A stretch of DNA of 26,106 nt from an uncultured Candidatus Saccharibacteria bacterium. Its GTDB lineage: Bacteria > Patescibacteriota > Minisyncoccia > Phycocordibacterales > Zambryskibacteraceae. The stretch's first letter is position 1, and each line of letters starts with the position of its first letter. Position numbers and translations under genes: made by a program. The stretch is taken from contig CAZBQU010000002.1 in assembly GCA_964494215.1 (NCBI GenBank), forward strand, positions 1 to 26,106, in the 5' to 3' direction. The notes under the pieces were generated by a model. The model was given only the letters and a program-made list of their open reading frames with translations. It searched no databases and was not told where the DNA came from. Positions 4,874-14,492 of the stretch are shown piece after piece.

Positions 4874-6222
4874 GCGAGCGCCTCTTTCATAAGCTCCTGA
4901 AGGAGAATCGGGTTGGCTCTGCCGCCCGATTTTTTCATCACCTGACCAACAAGGAACTGCACTGGAGAATCTTTTTTCTCTTCACTTAAAACGGCGGCAA
5001 TGAATCCGCGCAACACGTCCCTATCGCTTATCTGCATCAAATTATTTTTCTCTACAATCTCGTGCACATCTCCGCCTTCAGTCTGGAGTATCTTCAAAAT
5101 TTCTTTTGCACCGCGAGAAGAAATTTCTCCGCGAGCAATCATGCGAATCATTTCCACAAAAGCAGCGGGGGCGACAAGCGTCTGGATATCAGAAGCAATA
5201 TAGTTTGATGCAAGCTTCACGAGCGCAGGCTCCCCCAAGGCCCCTGCGACCTCTTCAAAGAAAGCCCCCCAGCTCGGCCGAGTGACATAGATCTCGACGT
5301 GCTCCGGAGTAATCCCGAAGGTCCCCAGACGCTCCCTCTTCTGCCATGGCAGCTCAGGAAGAGAGGCGACGAGCGCCTCGCGAGAGAACTCGGGGACTTC
5401 GGACACGAAGATCTTTGGAAGGTCCGGATCTGGGAAGTAACGATAATCATGGGAATCCTCTTTCGCGCGTTGCGAGAAGGTCTCTCCCCTCTCATCACTC
5501 CAGCCGCGCGTTTCCTGCGCGATCGTTTCTCCCTTTTCGAGAAGCGAGATGTGACGATTCATTTCGAAAGCAATTGCCTTCTCAACGGCCTTAAATGAGT
5601 TGAGGTTCTTCACTTCAACCTTGGTGCCCAAGGTCTCATTCTTCGAGACGGAGATGTTCGCTTCGACACGCATCTCCCCTTTCTCCATGTTGGCTTCGGC
5701 AATCCCAAGCGTTGTGAGGAGAAGCTGAAGCTCCTTGGCGAAGCGTGCTGCATCGGCAGCAGAATGGATGACAGGTTCAGTGACGAGCTCCATGAGTGGG
5801 ACGCCGGCACGGTTAAAATCGAGCAAACTCTCTTCGCCCTTGTCGTGGAGTGAGCGTGCAGTATCTTCTTCAAGATGAACGCGCGTGAGCTTCACTCCTG
5901 CCAATTCTCCACCGGTTACGAGCGGATATTTATACTGGGAAAGCTGGTAACTTTTCGGAATATCAGGATAAAAATAGTTCTTGCGGTCGAACTCAGTGTA
6001 GTCGGCCAAGACACCGCCAACCGCCGCACCGAAGCGCAGCACTCCCTTAACAGCTTCTTTGTTAATTACTGGGAGAGTGCCTGGGTGGCCCATACACACG
6101 GGACAAATGTTTACGTTAGGACGAGTTTCGTCGGGGTCGTTCAAAGAGGCGCAGAACATCTTCGTGCGCGTATTAAGCTCTGCATGCACCTCCAAGCCGA
6201 CCGTCAGCCTATACTCGCTCAT
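4870..6222 (-). CDS. gatB: Asp-tRNA(Asn)/Glu-tRNA(Gln) amidotransferase subunit B
   Basis: Motifs VGLEVHAEL, FDRKNYFYPD, HLEEDT, DFNRAGVPLMELVTEP, DYRYFPDPDL. Start moved to ATG 6222 (MSEYRL), downstream of TGCTATAAT. Confidence 0.97.
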   Translation of the reverse strand: MSEYRLTVGLEVHAELNTRTKMFCASLNDPDETRPNVNICPVCMGHPGTLPVINKEAVKGVLRFGAAVGGVLADYTEFDRKNYFYPDIPKSYQLSQYKYPLVTGGELAGVKLTRVHLEEDTARSLHDKGEESLLDFNRAGVPLMELVTEPVIHSAADAARFAKELQLLLTTLGIAEANMEKGEMRVEANISVSKNETLGTKVEVKNLNSFKAVEKAIAFEMNRHISLLEKGETIAQETRGWSDERGETFSQRAKEDSHDYRYFPDPDLPKIFVSEVPEFSREALVASLPELPWQKRERLGTFGITPEHVEIYVTRPSWGAFFEEVAGALGEPALVKLASNYIASDIQTLVAPAAFVEMIRMIARGEISSRGAKEILKILQTEGGDVHEIVEKNNLMQISDRDVLRGFIAAVLSEEKKDSPVQFLVGQVMKKSGGRANPILLQELMKEALA

Positions 6223-6231
6223 ATAAGCCAT

Positions 6232-6240
6232 ATTATAGCA
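6232..6240 (-). promoter_or_regulatory. Extended -10 (TGCTATAAT), 9 nt upstream of the gatB ATG
   Basis: Perfect TGn-TATAAT. Confidence 0.65.
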
Positions 6241-6271
6241 TTTCTTCCTTACTTCATCCTCCAAGCCCCTT

Positions 6272-7234
6272 CTACGCGAAGCGCTGCGTCAAATATTCTC
6301 CCAAGCGGGCAATGAGGGCGTCATCAACGATCGAAAAGGCAATAACTTCCGGCGATAGCGCCTTGAGGGCAGCGAGCTTCTCCGCTACTTCTTCTTTCGT
6401 CAGAGTATCGGCTTTGGTGAGCACGATAATCTCAGGCTTCTTCGTAATTTCTTTATTATATAACTCGAGCTCCTTGCGAACGATGGCGTAGACGGCAGCT
6501 GGGTCCTCGCTCTCGGCCGAAATGCAGTGGAGAAGCGCCTTCGTGCGTTCAATATGCCTCAAAAATTTATGCCCCAAGCCCTTACCGGCCGCTGCGCCCT
6601 CAATAAGACCTGGGATGTCGGCCAAGATAAGACCATAGAGACTGCCTAGGTTCGGTTCAAGCGTCGTGAAGGGGAAATCCCCCACTTTTGCCCGAGCATT
6701 GGTCACAGCATTCACGAGACTCGACTTGCCGGCATTAGGGAGGCCAATGACACCGATATCCACAAGCAGGAGGAGCTCGATGAGGAAATCTGCCTCCTCT
6801 CCATCAACTCCGTCAGTTGCCTTGCTTGGGGCTACGTTGAGCGAAGATTTGAAGTGGTCATTCCCCAACCCGCCACGACCGCCCTTAAGGAGAAGGACTC
6901 TCTCCCCGTCTTCCAAAATTTCTAACGCGTGCCCCGTCTCCAAGTTCTTCACTCGGGAACCAACAGGCAGCTTGATCTCAATATCCTTCCCCTCCCCACC
7001 TTGTTTCAAGTCTTTATAGCCATCCTCACCACGCTCTGCTTCAAAGATTTTAGTATGACGATACGCGGCCAAAATACCGATGTCACGCACGCCAACAGCA
7101 TAGACGTCGCCGCCCTTGCCGCCGTTGCCGCCCGAGGGGCCGCCCATATCCTTGCCCTTTTCCCGACGCCAACGGACAACGCCGTTGCCGCCGCGACCAG
7201 CCTTGAAGTGGAGTGTGAGTTCGTCGATAAACAT
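6272..7234 (-). CDS. obgE: GTPase Obg/CgtA (short form, 320 aa)
   Basis: Gly-rich Obg fold (AGRGGNG, GPSGGNGGKGG), GLPNAGKS, FTTLEP, DIPG, TKAD. Confidence 0.97.
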   Translation of the reverse strand: MFIDELTLHFKAGRGGNGVVRWRREKGKDMGGPSGGNGGKGGDVYAVGVRDIGILAAYRHTKIFEAERGEDGYKDLKQGGEGKDIEIKLPVGSRVKNLETGHALEILEDGERVLLLKGGRGGLGNDHFKSSLNVAPSKATDGVDGEEADFLIELLLLVDIGVIGLPNAGKSSLVNAVTNARAKVGDFPFTTLEPNLGSLYGLILADIPGLIEGAAAGKGLGHKFLRHIERTKALLHCISAESEDPAAVYAIVRKELELYNKEITKKPEIIVLTKADTLTKEEVAEKLAALKALSPEVIAFSIVDDALIARLGEYLTQRFA

Positions 7235-7240
7235 AGCCCT

Positions 7241-7249
7241 ACCTTAGCA
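7241..7249 (-). promoter_or_regulatory. Extended -10 (TGCTAAGGT), 6 nt upstream of the obgE ATG (leaderless geometry)
   Basis: TGn-TAnnnT followed by agggct-ATG. Confidence 0.5.
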
Positions 7250-7262
7250 TTAAAAGCCTTTT

Positions 7263-8135
7263 TTACGAATTCAGCGCGAGTTCCGCGAGTTTAACGGCAC
7301 CTTCCTTGCTCTCTGCGACGCATAGGAAGCGGCCACGATGGCAGAACACCGCATCTTCCACACCAGTCACCTCTTTCAACGAATTCCCGTCCAAAGCAGA
7401 CCAGGATTCGGGGAAAAGCTTTTTACGCTCGAAGCCTTTGATAGTCTGAGGTACGCCCTTGGCTCCCCAATTCCCTTCTCGTCTTTTATACACTACATAG
7501 ATCGGTTCCGGCTTCCCCACCAGCACAGGCTCCCAAGGCAAACTATCCTCAAGGACGATGATCTGTTTATTCGGCGCAGATTCAAAAATAACCTCGACTT
7601 TCTTCATACCCTCTACTCGTTCTCGCACCTTGCCTATTTCTCGAATGAGAAGTTCCCGAGCGATATTTACCAAGTTCATGAAAATCTTATATAACTCCTC
7701 ATCATCGTGAGTTTCGTTTTTCAAATAAGAATACAGGAAGTCGCTTATCGTATACGGACGAACATTTTCAAAGACCTGCTCGTAAACGGAAATTCCGTTA
7801 TCCGGCGCATCGATCGACATGACCAATTTTTCATCGAGAAGATCCGCTGCTTCTTTATTGCCAGCCAACTCTACCCCGTACTCTTTCCACACGAGGCCAA
7901 ACGAGGCATACGGAATACCGTTAGGTCTCGTGCCTGCCCCTCCTGCCTGGTGATGATCAAACTGTTTACGATCTGGGTCATGCACGAGGCCAACATCAAC
8001 TACGATATCCGCGCCTGCAATCAGGTTCTTATCTCGACTCCGAATCACCTCCGCCTCAGGATATTTAAGAAGAAGCGTTGCTACGGCAAAGATATCATCG
8101 GTATGGAAACTGCCGCTATGCGTGACGATGTTCAT
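7263..8135 (-). CDS. MYG1 family (UPF0160) DHH-type hydrolase/exonuclease
   Basis: IVTHSGSFHTDD, DVG, FDHHQ, YASFGLVWK, AVFCHRGRF. Start moved to ATG 8135. Confidence 0.9.
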   Translation of the reverse strand: MNIVTHSGSFHTDDIFAVATLLLKYPEAEVIRSRDKNLIAGADIVVDVGLVHDPDRKQFDHHQAGGAGTRPNGIPYASFGLVWKEYGVELAGNKEAADLLDEKLVMSIDAPDNGISVYEQVFENVRPYTISDFLYSYLKNETHDDEELYKIFMNLVNIARELLIREIGKVRERVEGMKKVEVIFESAPNKQIIVLEDSLPWEPVLVGKPEPIYVVYKRREGNWGAKGVPQTIKGFERKKLFPESWSALDGNSLKEVTGVEDAVFCHRGRFLCVAESKEGAVKLAELALNS

Positions 8136-8646
8136 AGACCTTGTTCGCCCAGTAGAGAAGGAGGATCGCCGCAATGATGGTTAAGGACATTGTAGGGATG
8201 GTGACGTAGCCATACGCATATACATACAACTTAGCGCAGGAAGCCGTGGCCTCACACGGGATAAGCGGATTGCCACCCCACTGAATGTAGGCGTGGTACA
8301 GGGAGAGGACAAGTCCCATGAGTGAAAGCGGAAGAACGTAGCTGAAGGCTCCTCGATCCTTCTTCACATATCCAACAAAGAAGAGCGCGAGCATAGGATA
8401 GATGGCAACACGCTGCCACCAGCACAAGTAGCAAGGCTCAAAGCCAACACCGTTTGAATAGAAGAGGCTGCCCGCAATAGCGATGAAGGCGACGAAGATA
8501 CCAAGAAGAAGAGCGTGCTTCCCCATGAAGCGAGCAAGATTTCTCCCAAACGTATGTCGGAACACAAGCGCGAGGAATGCAACGACAAGGACAATATCGA
8601 ACGCGACGACAAGAGCTGGCAAGACTGATTGGATGGTAGCGATCAT
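8116..8646 (-). CDS. dsbB: Disulfide bond formation protein B (DsbB/BdbC family)
   Basis: Multiple TM segments, FEPCYLCWWQR, a second Cys pair PCEATASC, and VTIPTMSL. Start moved to ATG 8646. Confidence 0.88.
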   Translation of the reverse strand: MIATIQSVLPALVVAFDIVLVVAFLALVFRHTFGRNLARFMGKHALLLGIFVAFIAIAGSLFYSNGVGFEPCYLCWWQRVAIYPMLALFFVGYVKKDRGAFSYVLPLSLMGLVLSLYHAYIQWGGNPLIPCEATASCAKLYVYAYGYVTIPTMSLTIIAAILLLYWANKVYEHRHA

Positions 8647-8647
8647 A

Positions 8648-9016
8648 TTATTGCGGTAATGAGCAACGAGAAGCAGCTGCGAGATCAGCAAGTGGCACCT
8701 CCCCCGTCTTCACTGTGCCGTCGGGGAACTTCCACGTAGGATATCCAGTAATACCAGCGGCTTCGCAAACAGGCAACTGATTGTTCCCATCGGGAGTGGA
8801 GCACTCGATGTAAGGCAAGAGCTTTGCAGACGCGCCGAACATGGCCTTTTGATTCTGGCAATGTGGGCACCAGAAGGTACCGTAGAAAAGAGTGCCACTC
8901 TCCTTCAAACATGTGGCGAAGGCATCAAGCTTCCCTGGTCGACCAGGCGTACGCACAAGCCAGAAGACAAAAGCCACGAAGAGGATGAGCACGACGACCC
9001 AGGTATATTTTTTCAT
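8648..9016 (-). CDS. Membrane-anchored thioredoxin/glutaredoxin-like oxidoreductase (similar to the VKOR-associated Trx domain)
   Basis: N-terminal hydrophobic anchor, YGTFWCPHC, YIECS...C...GYPTW; six Cys in total. Confidence 0.85.
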   Translation of the reverse strand: MKKYTWVVVLILFVAFVFWLVRTPGRPGKLDAFATCLKESGTLFYGTFWCPHCQNQKAMFGASAKLLPYIECSTPDGNNQLPVCEAAGITGYPTWKFPDGTVKTGEVPLADLAAASRCSLPQ

Positions 9017-9025
9017 ATGTTTTAA

Positions 9026-9031
9026 AGTATA
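9026..9031 (-). promoter_or_regulatory. -10 box TATACT, 9 nt upstream of the thioredoxin-like gene ATG
   Basis: TATACT-ttaaaacat-ATG. Confidence 0.5.
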
Positions 9032-9040
9032 GAAGAAAAC

Positions 9041-9598
9041 TTAGAATTGTGACAGACCACGGAGCGAGAGGCCGACGACGAGAAGAGTAATCATCATGCG
9101 AAGAATCGAGCCGATCACGGTGAGAATAAGGAAGCGCGTAAAAGGCATGCGGATAAAGCCTGCCGCCACGTCGATAGGAATCGACGGCAGGACTGGGAAA
9201 CAGCGGAGAGCAAAGAATGCGGCTTCGTCATAACGCGTATTGGCGAAGTACTGCTTCATCCCTTCTACCTTCTCCCAGCTCACTCGGAAATATTTTCCAT
9301 ATCTTACGATAAGAGGTTTCCCTCCATAGTATGTGAGGAGATAGAACGGGATTGAACCCAACGCCGCGCCGATTCCCACTGGCAAGGCGACGAAGAGGAA
9401 GAGCTTGCCCGCCAAAACGGCCGTAAAGACACCCTTCAAGAACGCAAGCTGCCCTGCGAGCACGAGTGCGAAGGGGAAGACTCCGAGAAGGTCATTCAAA
9501 AACGACGCAAGGAAAAGCGGCCACACACTCGCAGGTCCAGGATCTATGACGAGCCGCTCCGCCGCCACGAGCACATCAATAGGATGGAAGATGCTCAT
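9041..9598 (-). CDS. DedA/VTT family membrane protein
   Basis: GAALGSIPFYLLTYYGG, LRCFPVLP, AAGFIRMPFTRF, IGSILR. Start moved to ATG 9598, 5 nt after the secA stop. Confidence 0.85.
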   Translation of the reverse strand: MSIFHPIDVLVAAERLVIDPGPASVWPLFLASFLNDLLGVFPFALVLAGQLAFLKGVFTAVLAGKLFLFVALPVGIGAALGSIPFYLLTYYGGKPLIVRYGKYFRVSWEKVEGMKQYFANTRYDEAAFFALRCFPVLPSIPIDVAAGFIRMPFTRFLILTVIGSILRMMITLLVVGLSLRGLSQF

Positions 9599-9603
9599 AG
9601 ACC

Positions 9604-12096
9604 TTAACGTTGAGCCGCGGTGAGTCGCATGTGCTCTTCCGTCTTCAAGAGACCGCACTTCTTATACTTCTTACCACTACCACATGGGCACGGTTCGTTA
9701 CGTCCGGCGTCTGAATCCGGAACAGAAGCGCCCGAAAGGCTGACAGCAATCGGCTCAGCGCCAGACACGGGGATAGCTTCCATTGCCTGAGTATCCACAT
9801 TTAAGACGAACTCCCCCACCTGCCGCGCGGTCGAATGCTCCATGTCGCGGAAGAAGCGCAAACCCTCTCTCTTGTATTCCACGAGCGGGTCACGTTGCCC
9901 GTATGCACGCAAGTTCACGCTGTTGCGGAGATACTCCATCATTTCCAAGTGATCTACCCAGAACAGGTCGACGGTGTGGAGGATAAGGCGACGCAAGGTT
10001 TCCTTCGTTGCCTCATTGGTAAAGTCGAGGGTCGCGAACTTTTTGTCAAAAGCTTCATGCACGGAAGGCTCTAAGCTTTCGCGTGTTTCCATAAGATAGG
10101 CACGGATCTCTGCTTCGTTCCCGAGCAAAATGCCGCGTCGACGACCATAGATGATATTTCTCTGGAAGTTAAGAACGTCGTCGAACTCAAGGACGTGCTT
10201 TCTCGCATCAAAGTTGAAGCCTTCAATCTTTTCCTGCGCCTTCTCGAGCGAGTTGGTGATGAGTTTATTCTCAATCGGCTCATCTTCGGCGATATTGAAG
10301 CGGCCCATCATCTTCTTGATCATATCGACAGCGAAGATGCGCATAAGAGAGTCCTCCAAGGAAACAAAGAACTGCGTAGCACCTGGGTCTCCTTGGCGTC
10401 CGGAACGACCACGGAGCTGGTTGTCGATACGGCGGGCGTCGTGTCGCTCCGTACCTAAGACAAAGAGGCCGCCCAAGGCCTTCACTTCTTCATAGGTCTC
10501 AGTGGCCATGGGGCTACCGCCGAGTTTAATGTCGACACCGCGACCTGCCATGTTGGTAGCGATCGTCACTGCCCCCTTGCGACCGGCCTGAGCGATAATC
10601 TCTCCTTCACGTTCATGATTTTTGGCATTCAAAATTTCGTGCGGAATGTTGGCCGCCTTCAAGTACTCACTCAAGAGTTCGTTGTGCTCAATAGAAACAG
10701 TGCCGATAAGGACGGGCTGGCCCTTAAGAGAGAGCTCCTTCACCTTCTTCGCAACGGCCTTCATCTTGCCGGCAAGTGTTTGGAAGATGAGATCACCACG
10801 ATCTTCGCGCGCCACCGGGCGATGCGTCGGAATAACGTATGTTTCAAGACCATACACTTTATAAAATTCTTCCTTCGAGGTAACAGCGGTACCCGTCATG
10901 CCAGCGAGCTTGCCGTACATACGGAAAAAGTTCTGGAACGTGATCGACGCGTAGGTGCGGGATTCTTCTTTGATACGCGCACCTTCTTTAGCTTCGATCG
11001 CCTGGTGTAAGCCCTCAGACCAACGGCGCCCTGGTTGCATGCGGCCAGTGAACGCATCCACGATAACAACCTCGTTGTCGCGCACGACGTATTCTTTATC
11101 TTTGCGGTACAGAGCCTTAGCCTTCACCGCCGTTTCCAGGTGATGCACGTACTTAACGCCTCCTTCTGTATAAATATTCTCAATACCAAGAAGCTTTTCC
11201 GCTTTGGTAATCCCCTCGTCTGTCATAGAAATCGCACGCAGCTTCTCATCGATAGTAAAGTCGGCACCTTCGGTAAGAGATGTCGCAATCCGAGCGAAGG
11301 TCGTATACAACTCACCGGCACTCCCTACGTTACCAGAAATAATAAGCGGCGTTCGAGCTTCGTCGATAAGAATAGAGTCAACTTCGTCGACAATAGCGTA
11401 ATGCCACCCACGCTGCACCAACTGCTTCGGGTCATGGACCATGTTGTCGCGCAGATAATCGAAACCGAATTCATTGTTCGTACCATACGTAATGTCGGCA
11501 CGATATGCTTCCTGCTTCGTCGCGGCACGGAGGAACTCATACACCACTTTGAAAGAACCTTTGTCATCTCGCTCCTTATCTTTCTCCTCATCAACGTGAC
11601 TTTCGTCGTATACAAATGAAGCTTGTGAATTCAACACACCCGTAGTGACACCGAGAGCAGCATACACCTGCCCCATATCGACGGCATCACGGCGAGAAAG
11701 ATAATCATTTACAGTAACGACGTGCACGCCCTTACCGTCGAGTGCCATGAGATACGCCGCGAGTGTAGCGACAAGTGTTTTACCTTCACCGGTTTTCATT
11801 TCTGCAATACCACCATGGAAAAGTGCGAGACCGCCCAAAATCTGAACATCGAAATGACGTTCATGTCTCGTTCGCTTCGCCGCTTCGCGCACAGCCGCAA
11901 ACGCTTCGGGCAAAATTTCTTCAAGAGAAGCGCCCTCGGCAAGACGCTTTTTAAATTCTAATGTTTTTGCTTTAAGCTCGTCGGCAGAAAACTTTTCGTA
12001 CTCAGGTTCGAGTGCGTTAACTGTGGCGACAGTTGAGCGCCACAATTCAATCTTCTTATCTTCCGTGGAGCGGAATAATGAGGTGAAAAAAGCCAT
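9604..12096 (-). CDS. secA: Preprotein translocase ATPase SecA
   Basis: MKTGEGKT, IVDEVDSILIDEARTPLIISG, ATNMAGRGVDI, QLRGRSGRQGDPG and a C-terminal SEC-C-like CPCGSGKKYKKC. Start moved to ATG 12096. Confidence 0.98.
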   Translation of the reverse strand: MAFFTSLFRSTEDKKIELWRSTVATVNALEPEYEKFSADELKAKTLEFKKRLAEGASLEEILPEAFAAVREAAKRTRHERHFDVQILGGLALFHGGIAEMKTGEGKTLVATLAAYLMALDGKGVHVVTVNDYLSRRDAVDMGQVYAALGVTTGVLNSQASFVYDESHVDEEKDKERDDKGSFKVVYEFLRAATKQEAYRADITYGTNNEFGFDYLRDNMVHDPKQLVQRGWHYAIVDEVDSILIDEARTPLIISGNVGSAGELYTTFARIATSLTEGADFTIDEKLRAISMTDEGITKAEKLLGIENIYTEGGVKYVHHLETAVKAKALYRKDKEYVVRDNEVVIVDAFTGRMQPGRRWSEGLHQAIEAKEGARIKEESRTYASITFQNFFRMYGKLAGMTGTAVTSKEEFYKVYGLETYVIPTHRPVAREDRGDLIFQTLAGKMKAVAKKVKELSLKGQPVLIGTVSIEHNELLSEYLKAANIPHEILNAKNHEREGEIIAQAGRKGAVTIATNMAGRGVDIKLGGSPMATETYEEVKALGGLFVLGTERHDARRIDNQLRGRSGRQGDPGATQFFVSLEDSLMRIFAVDMIKKMMGRFNIAEDEPIENKLITNSLEKAQEKIEGFNFDARKHVLEFDDVLNFQRNIIYGRRRGILLGNEAEIRAYLMETRESLEPSVHEAFDKKFATLDFTNEATKETLRRLILHTVDLFWVDHLEMMEYLRNSVNLRAYGQRDPLVEYKREGLRFFRDMEHSTARQVGEFVLNVDTQAMEAIPVSGAEPIAVSLSGASVPDSDAGRNEPCPCGSGKKYKKCGLLKTEEHMRLTAAQR

Positions 12097-12106
12097 ATAA
12101 GGACTC

Positions 12107-12115
12107 ATTTTACCA
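12107..12115 (-). promoter_or_regulatory. Extended -10 (TGGTAAAAT), 10 nt upstream of the secA ATG
   Basis: TGn-TAAAAT; it overlaps the longer start used by the ORF track. Confidence 0.55.
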
Positions 12116-12128
12116 TATTTTACGCCAA

Positions 12129-12168
12129 GAAAAAGCGCTTCCCCTTATACAGGGAGAAGCGCTTTTTC
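12129..12168 (-). terminator. Intrinsic (likely bidirectional) terminator downstream of the Lys-rich micro-ORF
   Basis: Perfect 13-bp arms gaaaaagcgcttc (12129-12141) / gaagcgctttttc (12156-12168), an inner ccct/aggg stem, and T-tracts on both strands. Confidence 0.8.
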
Positions 12169-12184
12169 GTGGGCCCTAAGAGAA

Positions 12185-12274
12185 CTAACGGCTCTTCTTC
12201 TTTTTCGAAACGGCTTTCTTCTTCTTAGGAGCTGCCTTCTTCTTCTTAGGAGCGACCTTCTTTTTCTTTGCCAT
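12185..12274 (-). CDS. 29-aa lysine-rich micro-protein MAKKKKVAPKKKKAAPKKKKAVSKKKKSR (histone H1 tail-like)
   Basis: ATG at 12274 and TAG at 12185-12187, with a 21-nt repeat unit and a terminator 16 nt downstream. 13 of 16 Lys codons are AAG, so long poly-A runs are avoided. Confidence 0.75.
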   Translation of the reverse strand: MAKKKKVAPKKKKAAPKKKKAVSKKKKSR

Positions 12275-12284
12275 TGATGGAATG

Positions 12285-12349
12285 TGTTGCTCTTCGATTA
12301 CTCGGAGAACAGATTACTAGTAACCCTGAGCCGCAGAAGATATTCTGCG
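12285..12349 (-). ncRNA. Candidate structured 5' leader / cis-regulatory RNA (three hairpins)
   Basis: Hairpins at 12332-12349 (CGCAGAA/UUCUGCG), 12310-12328 and 12285-12311 (GUAA tetraloop), found by eye; no known family recognised. Confidence 0.4.
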
Positions 12350-12413
12350 CTTGATTCAATTATCGTATGTATGCGCCGAAACACAATAGGCAAACAGAGA
12401 AAAAAGCCGAAAG

Positions 12414-12422
12414 TGTGGATAA
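12414..12422 (-). promoter_or_regulatory. Perfect DnaA box TTATCCACA
   Basis: The plus strand reads TGTGGATAA in intergenic DNA next to an AT-rich inverted repeat (12424-12442). Confidence 0.55.
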
Positions 12423-12452
12423 CCGAAAAAAATATTTTTTCGAATTTTTTTA

Positions 12453-14492
12453 TTACAGCTGCTTCAAAAGTTCGTCGTACGTCGCAGCGTTTGCAGGATC
12501 AAGTTTTTTTCTCGCCTCGAGAATCGCGCGCACGCGATCCATACGTCCGTTGCCGTAGTACGCAGAAACAATGCGCGAATCCATCGTCACACGATCCAAC
12601 GGAATCAAAGCAAGCATCTCTGCTTCCGCGCGAGTGTTTCTTGCATAAATTGCACCGATGAGATAAATAATCCGAGCTTCTTCGTATTGCGGCGCGAGCT
12701 CATACGCTTCCTTGAACACGGCGAGAGCATTGTCGAACTGCTTCGCACTGATATACGCGGATCCAAGCTCAAAGTAGACCTGTTGCTTTTCTGGCATGAG
12801 CGTGCGAGCGCGAGTGAGATGTGTCATACCTTCGTCGAGGTTCCCCACCAAGGCAAGGAATTGCCCGGCCAAAAGTTCATGGCGTGCGTCAGAGGCATAT
12901 CTCGCATCTTGCGCCGCGATCGTTTCCTTGAGGAAATTGTAAAACTCATTTTTTTTCTCAAGTGCAATCTCACTCTGGAGAATCACGGAGACATTGTTGA
13001 CGGCCTGTTCCGTAGCTTCGATATGTCCAAGATTGCTTGCTTCAAGTGCCGAACGGAAGGAGTCTGTCGCCACGCCATAGTCTTTAACAGAAACAGCTTT
13101 GAGCGCATTCAAGAGAGAAAGATTCCCAGAAAGCGGCCGCCACTCAACGACATAGAGAGAACCAATGAGAAGGAGGGCTGCACCGAGCATCACTGCATTC
13201 CGACCGTTCTCACCCAACTCCTTATGCTTCCACACCGTCTCCCCCGCTGTGCGTCCGTGAATATAAGCCAGCAAGGTGAAGAAAAGTATGTAGCTCACCA
13301 AATGGTCGAAAACAAACATATTGTGGAAGAAGTACGCCGCCATAAGCGAGGTGAGCACCGCCCGTTCGAGGAACGAGAGCGTGGCTCGACGCCAGATAAG
13401 ATACAAGGCCGCTCCATATAAGGAGAGGTACGTAAGGAGCCCTAGGACACCGCCGGCGACAAGCCAGTCAAGAAAGATATTGTGCGCACGGTCAAACCAC
13501 GGTTCGAGAGCGTACATCTTGGCACTGTAATGCTCTTGGAAAACGTACGAGAAGTTCTCCTGACCCCAACCGAGAAGCGGCCGCTCGAGGAATCCTTTCC
13601 ATGCCATTGGCCACACGTAGTAGCGACCCTGCGTCTGCAATTCCGCAGGGCTCAACGTCGCGAAGCGCGAGAGCACTGGGCTCTGCGTCACAAATTCCGT
13701 ATTGCGCGCCAAGAAAAATCCTCCCACAAGCAGTACAACAGCAGCAATTCCCACGAGACTTGCCTTCCGTACGCCTCGGTCGACAGTATTCCAAATGTTT
13801 AAAATAGCGAACACAAGCACCCCACCGAGCAGGCCTAAAATCGCACCACGCGTAGCCGTGTAGTAGAGGATGAAAGTTTGGAAAATGATGAGCCCTCCAT
13901 AGAGCCAGCGCGATTTCTGAATATGTCGTTCGCGGATAAGAAATAGCGCCGCGATAAAGATGTTGAAGAGCATGTACACCGCAAGATACGTCGCGTTACC
14001 GAAGGTGCCGTCAACGCGCACACCGCTTTGTGCGAGACGCAACGTCCCGAGAAGCTGCAAGAGCGCGTGCCCTCCTACGAGGAGCGACGCGATAAGCTCC
14101 GTCTTCCACCACTTGTTCCACAACTCCTCCGTCATCACCGCGCCCGCCACAATGAAATATGCGCCCAAGTGCAGGAGCGAAACGAAGCCGTCCATGCGCT
14201 CGTAGTTCGACCAGAAACTTTTAAGCGGTGCCACACCGAGAAGATCCGCCACGCCGATCACTGCGAGGAAGGCGAGGGCGGCGTAGAGGAGCATGGTCTT
14301 CTTTGGCCTATACGCAGGCACCATCGCCGCGAGCACGAGCCACAACGCGAAGATGATCTCCACCACAAACCGCCACGCAAAAGCTTTCGTCGTTACGTAC
14401 GGAAAGAAAAAGGAGCTATAGGTCAGGAATGGGATAAACGGAACGAGAAAAAGACCCCCCACAACAATACTCTTGAGTGTTTGTCTATTCAT
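12453..14492 (-). CDS. O-antigen ligase family (Wzy_C/WaaL/O-OTase-like) membrane protein with C-terminal TPR region
   Basis: Many TM segments, GTFGNATYLA, TATRGAILG, RYYVW...PLLGWGQENF, AHNIFLDWLVAGGVLG and TPR-like helical repeats. Confidence 0.9.
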   Translation of the reverse strand: MNRQTLKSIVVGGLFLVPFIPFLTYSSFFFPYVTTKAFAWRFVVEIIFALWLVLAAMVPAYRPKKTMLLYAALAFLAVIGVADLLGVAPLKSFWSNYERMDGFVSLLHLGAYFIVAGAVMTEELWNKWWKTELIASLLVGGHALLQLLGTLRLAQSGVRVDGTFGNATYLAVYMLFNIFIAALFLIRERHIQKSRWLYGGLIIFQTFILYYTATRGAILGLLGGVLVFAILNIWNTVDRGVRKASLVGIAAVVLLVGGFFLARNTEFVTQSPVLSRFATLSPAELQTQGRYYVWPMAWKGFLERPLLGWGQENFSYVFQEHYSAKMYALEPWFDRAHNIFLDWLVAGGVLGLLTYLSLYGAALYLIWRRATLSFLERAVLTSLMAAYFFHNMFVFDHLVSYILFFTLLAYIHGRTAGETVWKHKELGENGRNAVMLGAALLLIGSLYVVEWRPLSGNLSLLNALKAVSVKDYGVATDSFRSALEASNLGHIEATEQAVNNVSVILQSEIALEKKNEFYNFLKETIAAQDARYASDARHELLAGQFLALVGNLDEGMTHLTRARTLMPEKQQVYFELGSAYISAKQFDNALAVFKEAYELAPQYEEARIIYLIGAIYARNTRAEAEMLALIPLDRVTMDSRIVSAYYGNGRMDRVRAILEARKKLDPANAATYDELLKQL

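Follow-up and report, generated by a model that had tools for sequence, protein, structure and literature searches.

We identified a 29-codon micro-ORF, missed by annotation, as a real gene, and found that a large group of ultra-small, Parcubacteria-type bacteria shares it. The gene lies on the minus strand of a 26,106-nt stretch of DNA from an uncultured Candidatus Saccharibacteria bacterium (contig CAZBQU010000002.1 of assembly GCA_964494215.1), hereafter called the window, with secA as its downstream neighbour. Since purine-rich DNA is open in all frames, an open frame alone is no proof of a gene; we therefore used synteny as the gene test, and it is conservation together with transcription that lifts this micro-ORF above chance.

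The micro-ORF and its cassette

The locus comprises the following features, given from upstream to downstream on the minus strand:

12414..12422, minus strand: TTATCCACA, the DnaA-box consensus, upstream of the promoter (motif scan)
12381..12386, minus strand: -35-like hexamer TTGTGT, within a conserved TATTGT(A/G)T block (23-sequence alignment)
12359..12364, minus strand: -10 hexamer GATAAT, within a conserved GATAATTAA block (ATA.T invariant in the alignment)
12275..12352, minus strand: predicted 5' leader of about 78 nt (centroid fold; transcription start inferred from the -10)
12332-12349, minus strand: predicted 5'-terminal hairpin of the leader (centroid fold)
12288-12311, minus strand: predicted second hairpin of the leader, just before the start codon (centroid fold)
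12185..12274, minus strand: micro-ORF, ATG start, 29 codons and a TAG stop (ORF listing)
12125..12172, minus strand: intrinsic terminator with A-tract, GC-rich stem and U-tract (fold and inverted repeat)
12107..12115, minus strand: extended -10 of secA, TGGTAAAAT, ending 10 nt upstream of the probable secA start (12096)
9604..12108, minus strand: secA, the conserved downstream neighbour (ORF listing)

More than half of the 29 residues of the encoded peptide are lysine (16 Lys, with 1 Arg), and none is acidic. Four KKKK blocks occupy residues 3-6, 10-13, 17-20 and 24-27, seven residues apart, and the underlying DNA contains a direct repeat of three copies at 21-nt spacing, with an exact 17-nt identity between 12216-12232 and 12237-12253. 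An earlier sequence-only reading of the window had described all of this, namely an unannotated 29-residue micro-gene with its own terminator, four KKKK blocks, 17 basic and no acidic residues, a 17-nt repeat with a 21-nt period and a strong hairpin after the ORF, and our analysis agrees with it on each of these points, adding conservation and RNA for the gene itself. Two of its observations hold for this copy but carry less weight than it suggested. The micro-ORF does use AAG for 13 of its 16 Lys codons (the other three are AAA), but this is ordinary, because AAG makes up a share of 0.655 of Lys codons genome-wide. Likewise, the heptad spacing of the KKKK blocks is real here but is not a family feature: among 138 homologues, basic blocks are mostly spaced 4-6 residues apart, and a spacing of 7 occurs in 42 of 548 cases.

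Alignment of 23 upstream regions, together with wider sets of loci, revealed a cassette that runs from an AT-rich stretch through the TTATCCACA box, the promoter, a structured leader, the Lys/Arg micro-ORF and the terminator to the -10 element of secA. Three columns of the -35-like block (T64, T65 and G66) are invariant in the 23 sequences, the family form of the element being TATTGTAT, and the spacer between the -35 and the -10 measures 16 nt in the window and 17 nt in most relatives. The leader ranges in the family from about 50 nt, in short-leader members, to about 150 nt, with the second hairpin preceding a CA-rich start region. Two helices are predicted across 14 same-genus leaders, and 7 of 12 pairs show compensatory changes.

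The terminator is formed by a 20-nt inverted repeat (12125-12144 and 12153-12172, 90% complementary). The fold of 12100-12200 reaches -39.8 kcal/mol (z = -4.35), and none of 200 shuffles was as stable. Of 138 homologous loci, 127 have a hairpin with a T-run after the ORF. Beyond it, same-genus loci repeat the arrangement of TGnTAAAAT, a gap of 9-10 nt and ATGGC ahead of secA, and homologous downstream genes match Pfam SecA_DEAD with E values of about 1e-121. The secA start is probably the second ATG (12096, MAFF...) rather than 12108; with the extended -10 ending 10 nt before 12096, the secA mRNA is predicted to be nearly leaderless. Directly downstream of secA, positions 8116-9658 on the minus strand encode a VTT/DedA-like membrane protein, a weakly thioredoxin-like protein and a DsbB-like protein, which together make up a small secretion and disulfide-formation cluster.

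Conservation and distribution

Using the N-terminus of SecA as an anchor, we collected the secA loci of 27 same-genus genomes. A Lys/Arg micro-ORF lay directly upstream of secA in 24 of the 27. One locus was truncated at a contig end, leaving 26 assessable genomes, and the cassette was present before secA in 25 of these; the secA-locus search found no micro-gene in the other one. Same-genus genome G021 has a 241-codon ORF inserted between the micro-gene terminator and secA (L296:1679-2404), with the cassette intact, and by eye this ORF looks like an IS200/RAYT-type tyrosine transposase.

At wider range, sampling one genome per family, about 21 of the 29 sampled families of the order have the cassette ahead of secA. 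Even samples of the same design put it at 5 of 29 genomes outside the order but inside the class, and at 0 of 28 in other classes of the phylum. Two other-order genomes show the order micro-gene, hpf (Ribosomal_S30AE), secA (L249:854-1261 in G380 and L243:2010-2435 in G393). The hpf-secA pairing is known from Gram-positive bacteria; it is retained in these two orders, with the micro-gene at its head.

We also searched 185,579 species genomes with the promoter pattern alone, which retrieved at least 80 loci. Among the matches listed, a micro-ORF was present at 64 of 66 Patescibacteria loci, the other two being unrelated promoters, and was missing from all 14 listed matches outside the Patescibacteria (Bacillota and Bacteroidota). 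At these 64 listed loci the micro-ORF starts 48-173 nt after the -10, its frame is intact in every case despite lengths of 13-62 codons, and secA is the next gene in 58. The Patescibacteria records among those listed are labelled Nomurabacteria, Yonathbacteria, Zambryskibacteria, Paceibacterota and Minisyncoccia, and the best SecA identities among the matches listed, about 70%, are to records labelled Zambryskibacteria.

Protein-based searches fail on the micro-peptide because of its low complexity. A six-frame protein search of 40 relatives recovered only 1 homologue, where synteny shows that almost all of them have the micro-gene, and a protein homology search with a 45-residue family member returned no scored match. 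At E values up to 10, the micro-peptide matched no Pfam or NCBIfam family and no PDB chain. Rfam gave nothing at threshold, its weak matches all falling on the terminator hairpin. None of 15 family members (27-62 residues, the window's included) was found by exact look-up in a collection of 15 billion proteins, and our literature search found no published description of a polylysine micro-gene family. The ESM Atlas contains unnamed clusters of hypothetical proteins of 34-43 residues with similar features, and the nearest named cluster carries PF07382.

Coding signal in the family

The 138 unique homologous ORFs span 13-62 codons (median 24), and those of the genus 13-34 codons. Both ends are conserved (MAKKKK or MAAKKK at the N-terminus, KKRA or KRRR at the C-terminus), and the middle region consists of expandable Lys/Arg blocks with Ala, Ser, Thr, Val or Pro spacers. 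Same-genus ORFs open with ATG GCN followed by Lys codons; across the 138 ORFs the second codon is GCA in 106, and the stop codon is TAG in 88 and TAA in 50. Lys makes up 51% of their residues, Ala 23%, Arg 10%, Thr 5%, and Ser and Val 4% each, in a set from which a filter excluded acidic residues. In the genus and promoter-retrieved sets, where the filters tolerated some acidic residues, their number counted from the conserved M-A start was also zero.

All Lys/Arg blocks fall in the ATG register, and the +2 frame of the same DNA is 23% Glu. Furthermore, many of the Arg codons are CGA or CGC, each two substitutions removed from AAR, and this points to selection on charge rather than on nucleotide sequence. 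The micro-ORF leader contains no clear Shine-Dalgarno sequence; in this genome, however, such motifs precede long ORFs at 12% against a background of 15% (a crude count), so that the missing motif is no argument against translation. From these features we infer that the micro-ORF is translated as a disordered polycationic micro-protein.

Transcription

RNA contigs covering the micro-gene were found in two bioreactor metatranscriptomes and one wastewater RNA-Seq library, one contig in each. They measure 152-155 nt, lie entirely inside 12177-12339 with upstream-side ends at 12325-12339, and differ from the window at a single position (12236 C>T, a synonymous AAG>AAA change in codon 13). In the same three libraries, 11300-12176 and 12340-13100 were silent, except for 30-60-nt pieces of a conserved secA motif that carry several mismatches and come from other organisms. 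This evidence, which consists of assembled contigs without strand information, argues for a discrete short RNA, far above its neighbours in abundance and bounded by the predicted promoter and terminator. A conserved ORF in relatives, transcription or a ribosome footprint, and a frame kept under changes in repeat length were the three points on which the sequence-only reading had staked its proposal; the ORF is conserved, RNA is observed and the frame is kept.

A DnaA-type box upstream of the promoter

Box counts were made on 62 homologous loci fetched without use of the promoter. The TTATCCACA box is perfect in 49 of these, has at most one mismatch in 59 and is reversed in none; shuffled 9-mers, as a control, hit 0.07 loci on average. 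The distance from the end of the box to the -10 is 39-41 nt in 38 of 42 loci, which places the box centre near -57; in the window it is 49 nt. The cassette thus carries one hallmark of a DnaA-regulated promoter, a consensus 9-mer in conserved position and orientation. A dnaA gene is present in this genome, on another contig. We considered the micro-gene region itself as a replication origin and rejected this, as it has a single box, no box cluster and no dnaA on the same contig.

In relative G338, three tandem DnaA-type boxes (TTATCCACC, TTATCCACT and TTATCCACA) followed by an AT-rich stretch lie on contig C1 at about 7315-7343 and constitute a candidate replication origin. If this 598,563-bp contig is a circular chromosome, the cluster is about 130 kb from dnaA by the short way round. 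The occurrence of TTATCCACA in an origin-type triple box suggests that the DnaA of this lineage probably reads it, and DnaA is the presumed factor at the box of the micro-gene.

The motif is not confined to the micro-gene. This genome contains 11 copies where 3.6 would be expected, with copies on contigs C4, C5, C12, C14, C20, C25 and C34. Three relatives (G337-G339) have 20-23 copies against 8-10 for a control pattern, and in them the copies are scattered and do not cluster at dnaA. In this genome it precedes promoter-like sites of type IV pilin, peptidoglycan-binding, PKD-domain and mechanosensitive-channel-like genes. Its presence before surface-protein promoters makes it the marker of a broad regulon rather than a replication-specific one, and the copies may represent a DnaA-type regulon of wide reach in a regulator-poor genome. 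On contig C4 of this genome (G000, 5470-7379), a TTATCCACA box is followed by a non-coding stretch and a 346-codon reverse-transcriptase gene (RVT_1, E = 8.5e-28), an arrangement that may represent a retron-like element or one resembling a group II intron.

Candidate functions of the micro-peptide

As to function, we lean tentatively, with slightly less than even confidence, towards a non-specific polycation for nucleic acid, with DNA as the favoured target. At about 60% Lys+Arg, without acidic or bulky hydrophobic residues and with a five-fold length range, the peptide could hardly form a specific fold or pocket, and lengths of 13-62 residues around a low-complexity middle fit charge-based binding better than a fixed pocket. 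The predominance of Lys, Ala and Arg suggests polyanion binding, and on this general point the sequence-only reading, which had proposed a polyanion-binding peptide, is consistent with the family as a whole. We favour DNA for three reasons: the likeness in style to H1 tails, Hc2 and HupB tails; a plasticity in length that contrasts with Borrelia bS22 (PMC10618245); and a promoter with a DnaA consensus at a fixed, activator-like position. A faint, sub-threshold likeness to the Hc2 profile, confined to longer homologues, points the same way.

Under this favoured reading, a factor at the DnaA-consensus site, centred near -57 on a conserved promoter, would control transcription of the micro-gene. 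The 5'-terminal hairpin of the leader may stabilize the mRNA, and the strong terminator would stop transcription before the promoter of secA. The peptide would then bind nucleic acid by charge alone and neutralize or compact it in the manner of a histone H1 tail or protamine; DNA would be the preferred target, and expression would be coupled to the replication initiator.

The closest bacterial parallels are Hc2 (HctB, PF07382), the tails of HupB/MDP1, and AlgP, which the micro-peptide resembles in being Lys/Ala-rich, in having short repeats that expand and contract and in lacking acidic residues. The family as a whole shows the Lys/Ala-rich short repeats and near absence of acidic residues that are typical of Hc2, and the presumed charge-based binding of DNA would be common to both. 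Hc2, however, is roughly 165-200 residues long, whereas the micro-peptides have 13-62, stand alone instead of extending a folded domain, and come with a conserved promoter cassette and secA linkage. Membership of the Hc2 family did not hold up in the profile comparison: PF07382 gave no match to the window peptide at E values up to 10, and it scored 12.9 and 8.2 bits on two longer homologues against a gathering score of 40 bits. The C-terminal tail of linker histone H1 and the protamines offer a similar analogy, as disordered polycations with Ala/Pro/Ser spacers that would be expected to neutralize nucleic-acid charge, and replication-coupled histone expression would be a further parallel if the micro-gene is truly coupled to the replication initiator. 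The likeness is one of analogy only, with no demonstrable homology: protamines are Arg-rich and the micro-peptide Lys-rich, and Pfam found no match to the winged-helix domain of H1 (PF00538), for which the micro-peptide is too short.

To our knowledge, the nameable bacterial proteins of this size and basicity are all ribosomal (bS22, bL37 and bTHX), which counts against a role on DNA. The alternative that survives best is a tiny ribosome- or rRNA-associated basic protein, like bS22, eL41, bL37 or bTHX, or a polycation that aids rRNA folding in a lineage poor in assembly factors; we consider it unlikely, if by no means negligible. Borrelia bS22 has 30 residues, 61% Lys/Arg and one-residue variation across the genus, and the micro-peptide resembles it and its counterparts (eL41/mS38, bL37, bTHX) in size (most are below about 45 residues), in a Lys+Arg content near 60%, in having been missed by annotation and in its abundant transcript (PMC10618245). 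Moreover, the gene stands directly before hpf, which encodes a ribosome hibernation factor, in two other orders. CPR bacteria have reduced ribosomes (PMC9297842) and few biogenesis factors, about half the usual number (PMC12641178). What speaks against a ribosomal protein is above all variability: tiny ribosomal proteins are near-invariant in length and sequence, whereas the micro-peptide is highly variable, with 13-62 residues across the order and 13-34 among same-genus members, against a difference of one residue in Borrelia bS22. It also lacks the conserved helix-bend motif of bS22/eL41-type proteins and any conserved hydrophobic motif, and it matches no ribosomal or other family or structure in Pfam, NCBIfam or the PDB at E values up to 10. 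The Ala/Lys tail of uS19 reported for Parcubacteria does not, in this genome, share this block structure. We also rejected the micro-peptide as a replacement for hpf, since hpf is present elsewhere in this genome.

A cis-acting leader ORF, in which translation of polylysine would set terminator formation and thereby read-through into hpf or secA, is improbable. Position speaks for it: with few exceptions the next gene after the micro-gene is secA, or hpf followed by secA, whereas its neighbour on the opposite flank differs between loci (MurB, Wzy/TPR or SMC), and as a small conserved ORF immediately upstream of secA it recalls SecM and other upstream leader peptides. Additionally, the gap between the stop codon and the first paired base of the terminator has a median of 15 nt, which a ribosome footprint would span. 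That distance nevertheless ranges from 0 to 71 nt, the terminator is strong (a median of -16 kcal/mol for the hairpin in homologous loci, plus the U-tract), and secA has a conserved extended -10 of its own, about 10 nt before its start, unlike secA downstream of SecM. No RNA contig extends beyond the terminator, and none with read-through turned up; secA was silent in the same libraries. The two genes can also be separated, by the transposase-like gene of G021 or by a 74-codon ORF in genome G032. Finally, the micro-peptide has neither the signal or transmembrane segment nor the arrest motif of SecM-type peptides, and no hydrophobic segment of any kind.

A small non-coding RNA with a functional purine-rich tract and an incidental ORF would account for a short, abundant transcript that is structured at both ends, for a purine-rich sequence open in all frames by default and for an ATG without a Shine-Dalgarno sequence, the last of which says little in this genome. 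We regard it as very improbable, because the leader is followed at a constant position by a conserved ATG GCN, the conserved basic C-terminus runs straight into an in-frame stop, the basic blocks all lie in the Lys/Arg register and none in the Glu register, and Lys interchanges with CGN-encoded Arg. A polycation for some other anionic target, such as the cell surface or the acidic membrane phospholipids used by SecA and DnaA, has in its favour only the conserved secA linkage, the DnaA-type box and the fact that oligolysine generally binds acidic lipids, and is hardly credible for a peptide that has no hydrophobic or amphipathic membrane anchor, no export signal and nothing that links it directly to lipids.

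A charge-based nucleic-acid binder, with DNA as its preferred target, remains our tentative choice, and several observations weigh against the DNA part of it. The TTATCCACA box also precedes unrelated surface-protein promoters in this genome, a nucleoid role leaves the conserved adjacency to secA unaccounted for, and two other orders have the micro-gene at the front of an hpf-secA block. The distribution of HU does not complement that of the micro-gene: HU is present and tail-less in clades with and without the micro-gene, its reading frame measuring about 91-165 codons within the order and, for the most part, about 92-135 in other classes. We rejected the micro-peptide as a detached HU tail or a compensator for HU, given that HU is present and shows no length trend.

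Our search of this 92.7%-complete genome found no spermidine synthase and no member of the Orn/Arg/DAP decarboxylase family. Absence of polyamine genes is typical of CPR bacteria generally, so it does not discriminate between the readings. With no member of the decarboxylase family, the cell may import the lysine that it spends on the micro-peptide. A bolder version of the DNA reading, which we hold to be rather unlikely, is that the oligolysine of Paceibacteria under a DnaA switch would serve as a one-gene, replication-coupled counter-ion for the chromosome that replaces the functions of histone tails or polyamines in cells that seem to make no polyamines of their own. A genome scan turned up only one other candidate of this kind, a small basic ORF of 21 codons with a MAKG start and a Lys-rich tail on the minus strand of contig C8 (5474-5539 on the reverse complement).

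Implications

Very few chromatin or regulatory proteins are known from ultra-small CPR bacteria, and standard annotation does not see genes of fewer than 30 codons. The micro-gene described here is conserved over a large order, together with a promoter, leader and terminator that are themselves precisely conserved, and it yields RNA in environmental samples, yet the 15 members that we looked up are absent from the protein collection. If the micro-peptide coats DNA, it would be the smallest known nucleoid protein and a simple model of charge-based compaction; if it sits in the ribosome, it would be a new lineage-specific ribosomal protein. Either way, the fixed DnaA-type box offers a concrete starting point for studying how transcription is controlled in organisms that so far resist growth in pure culture.
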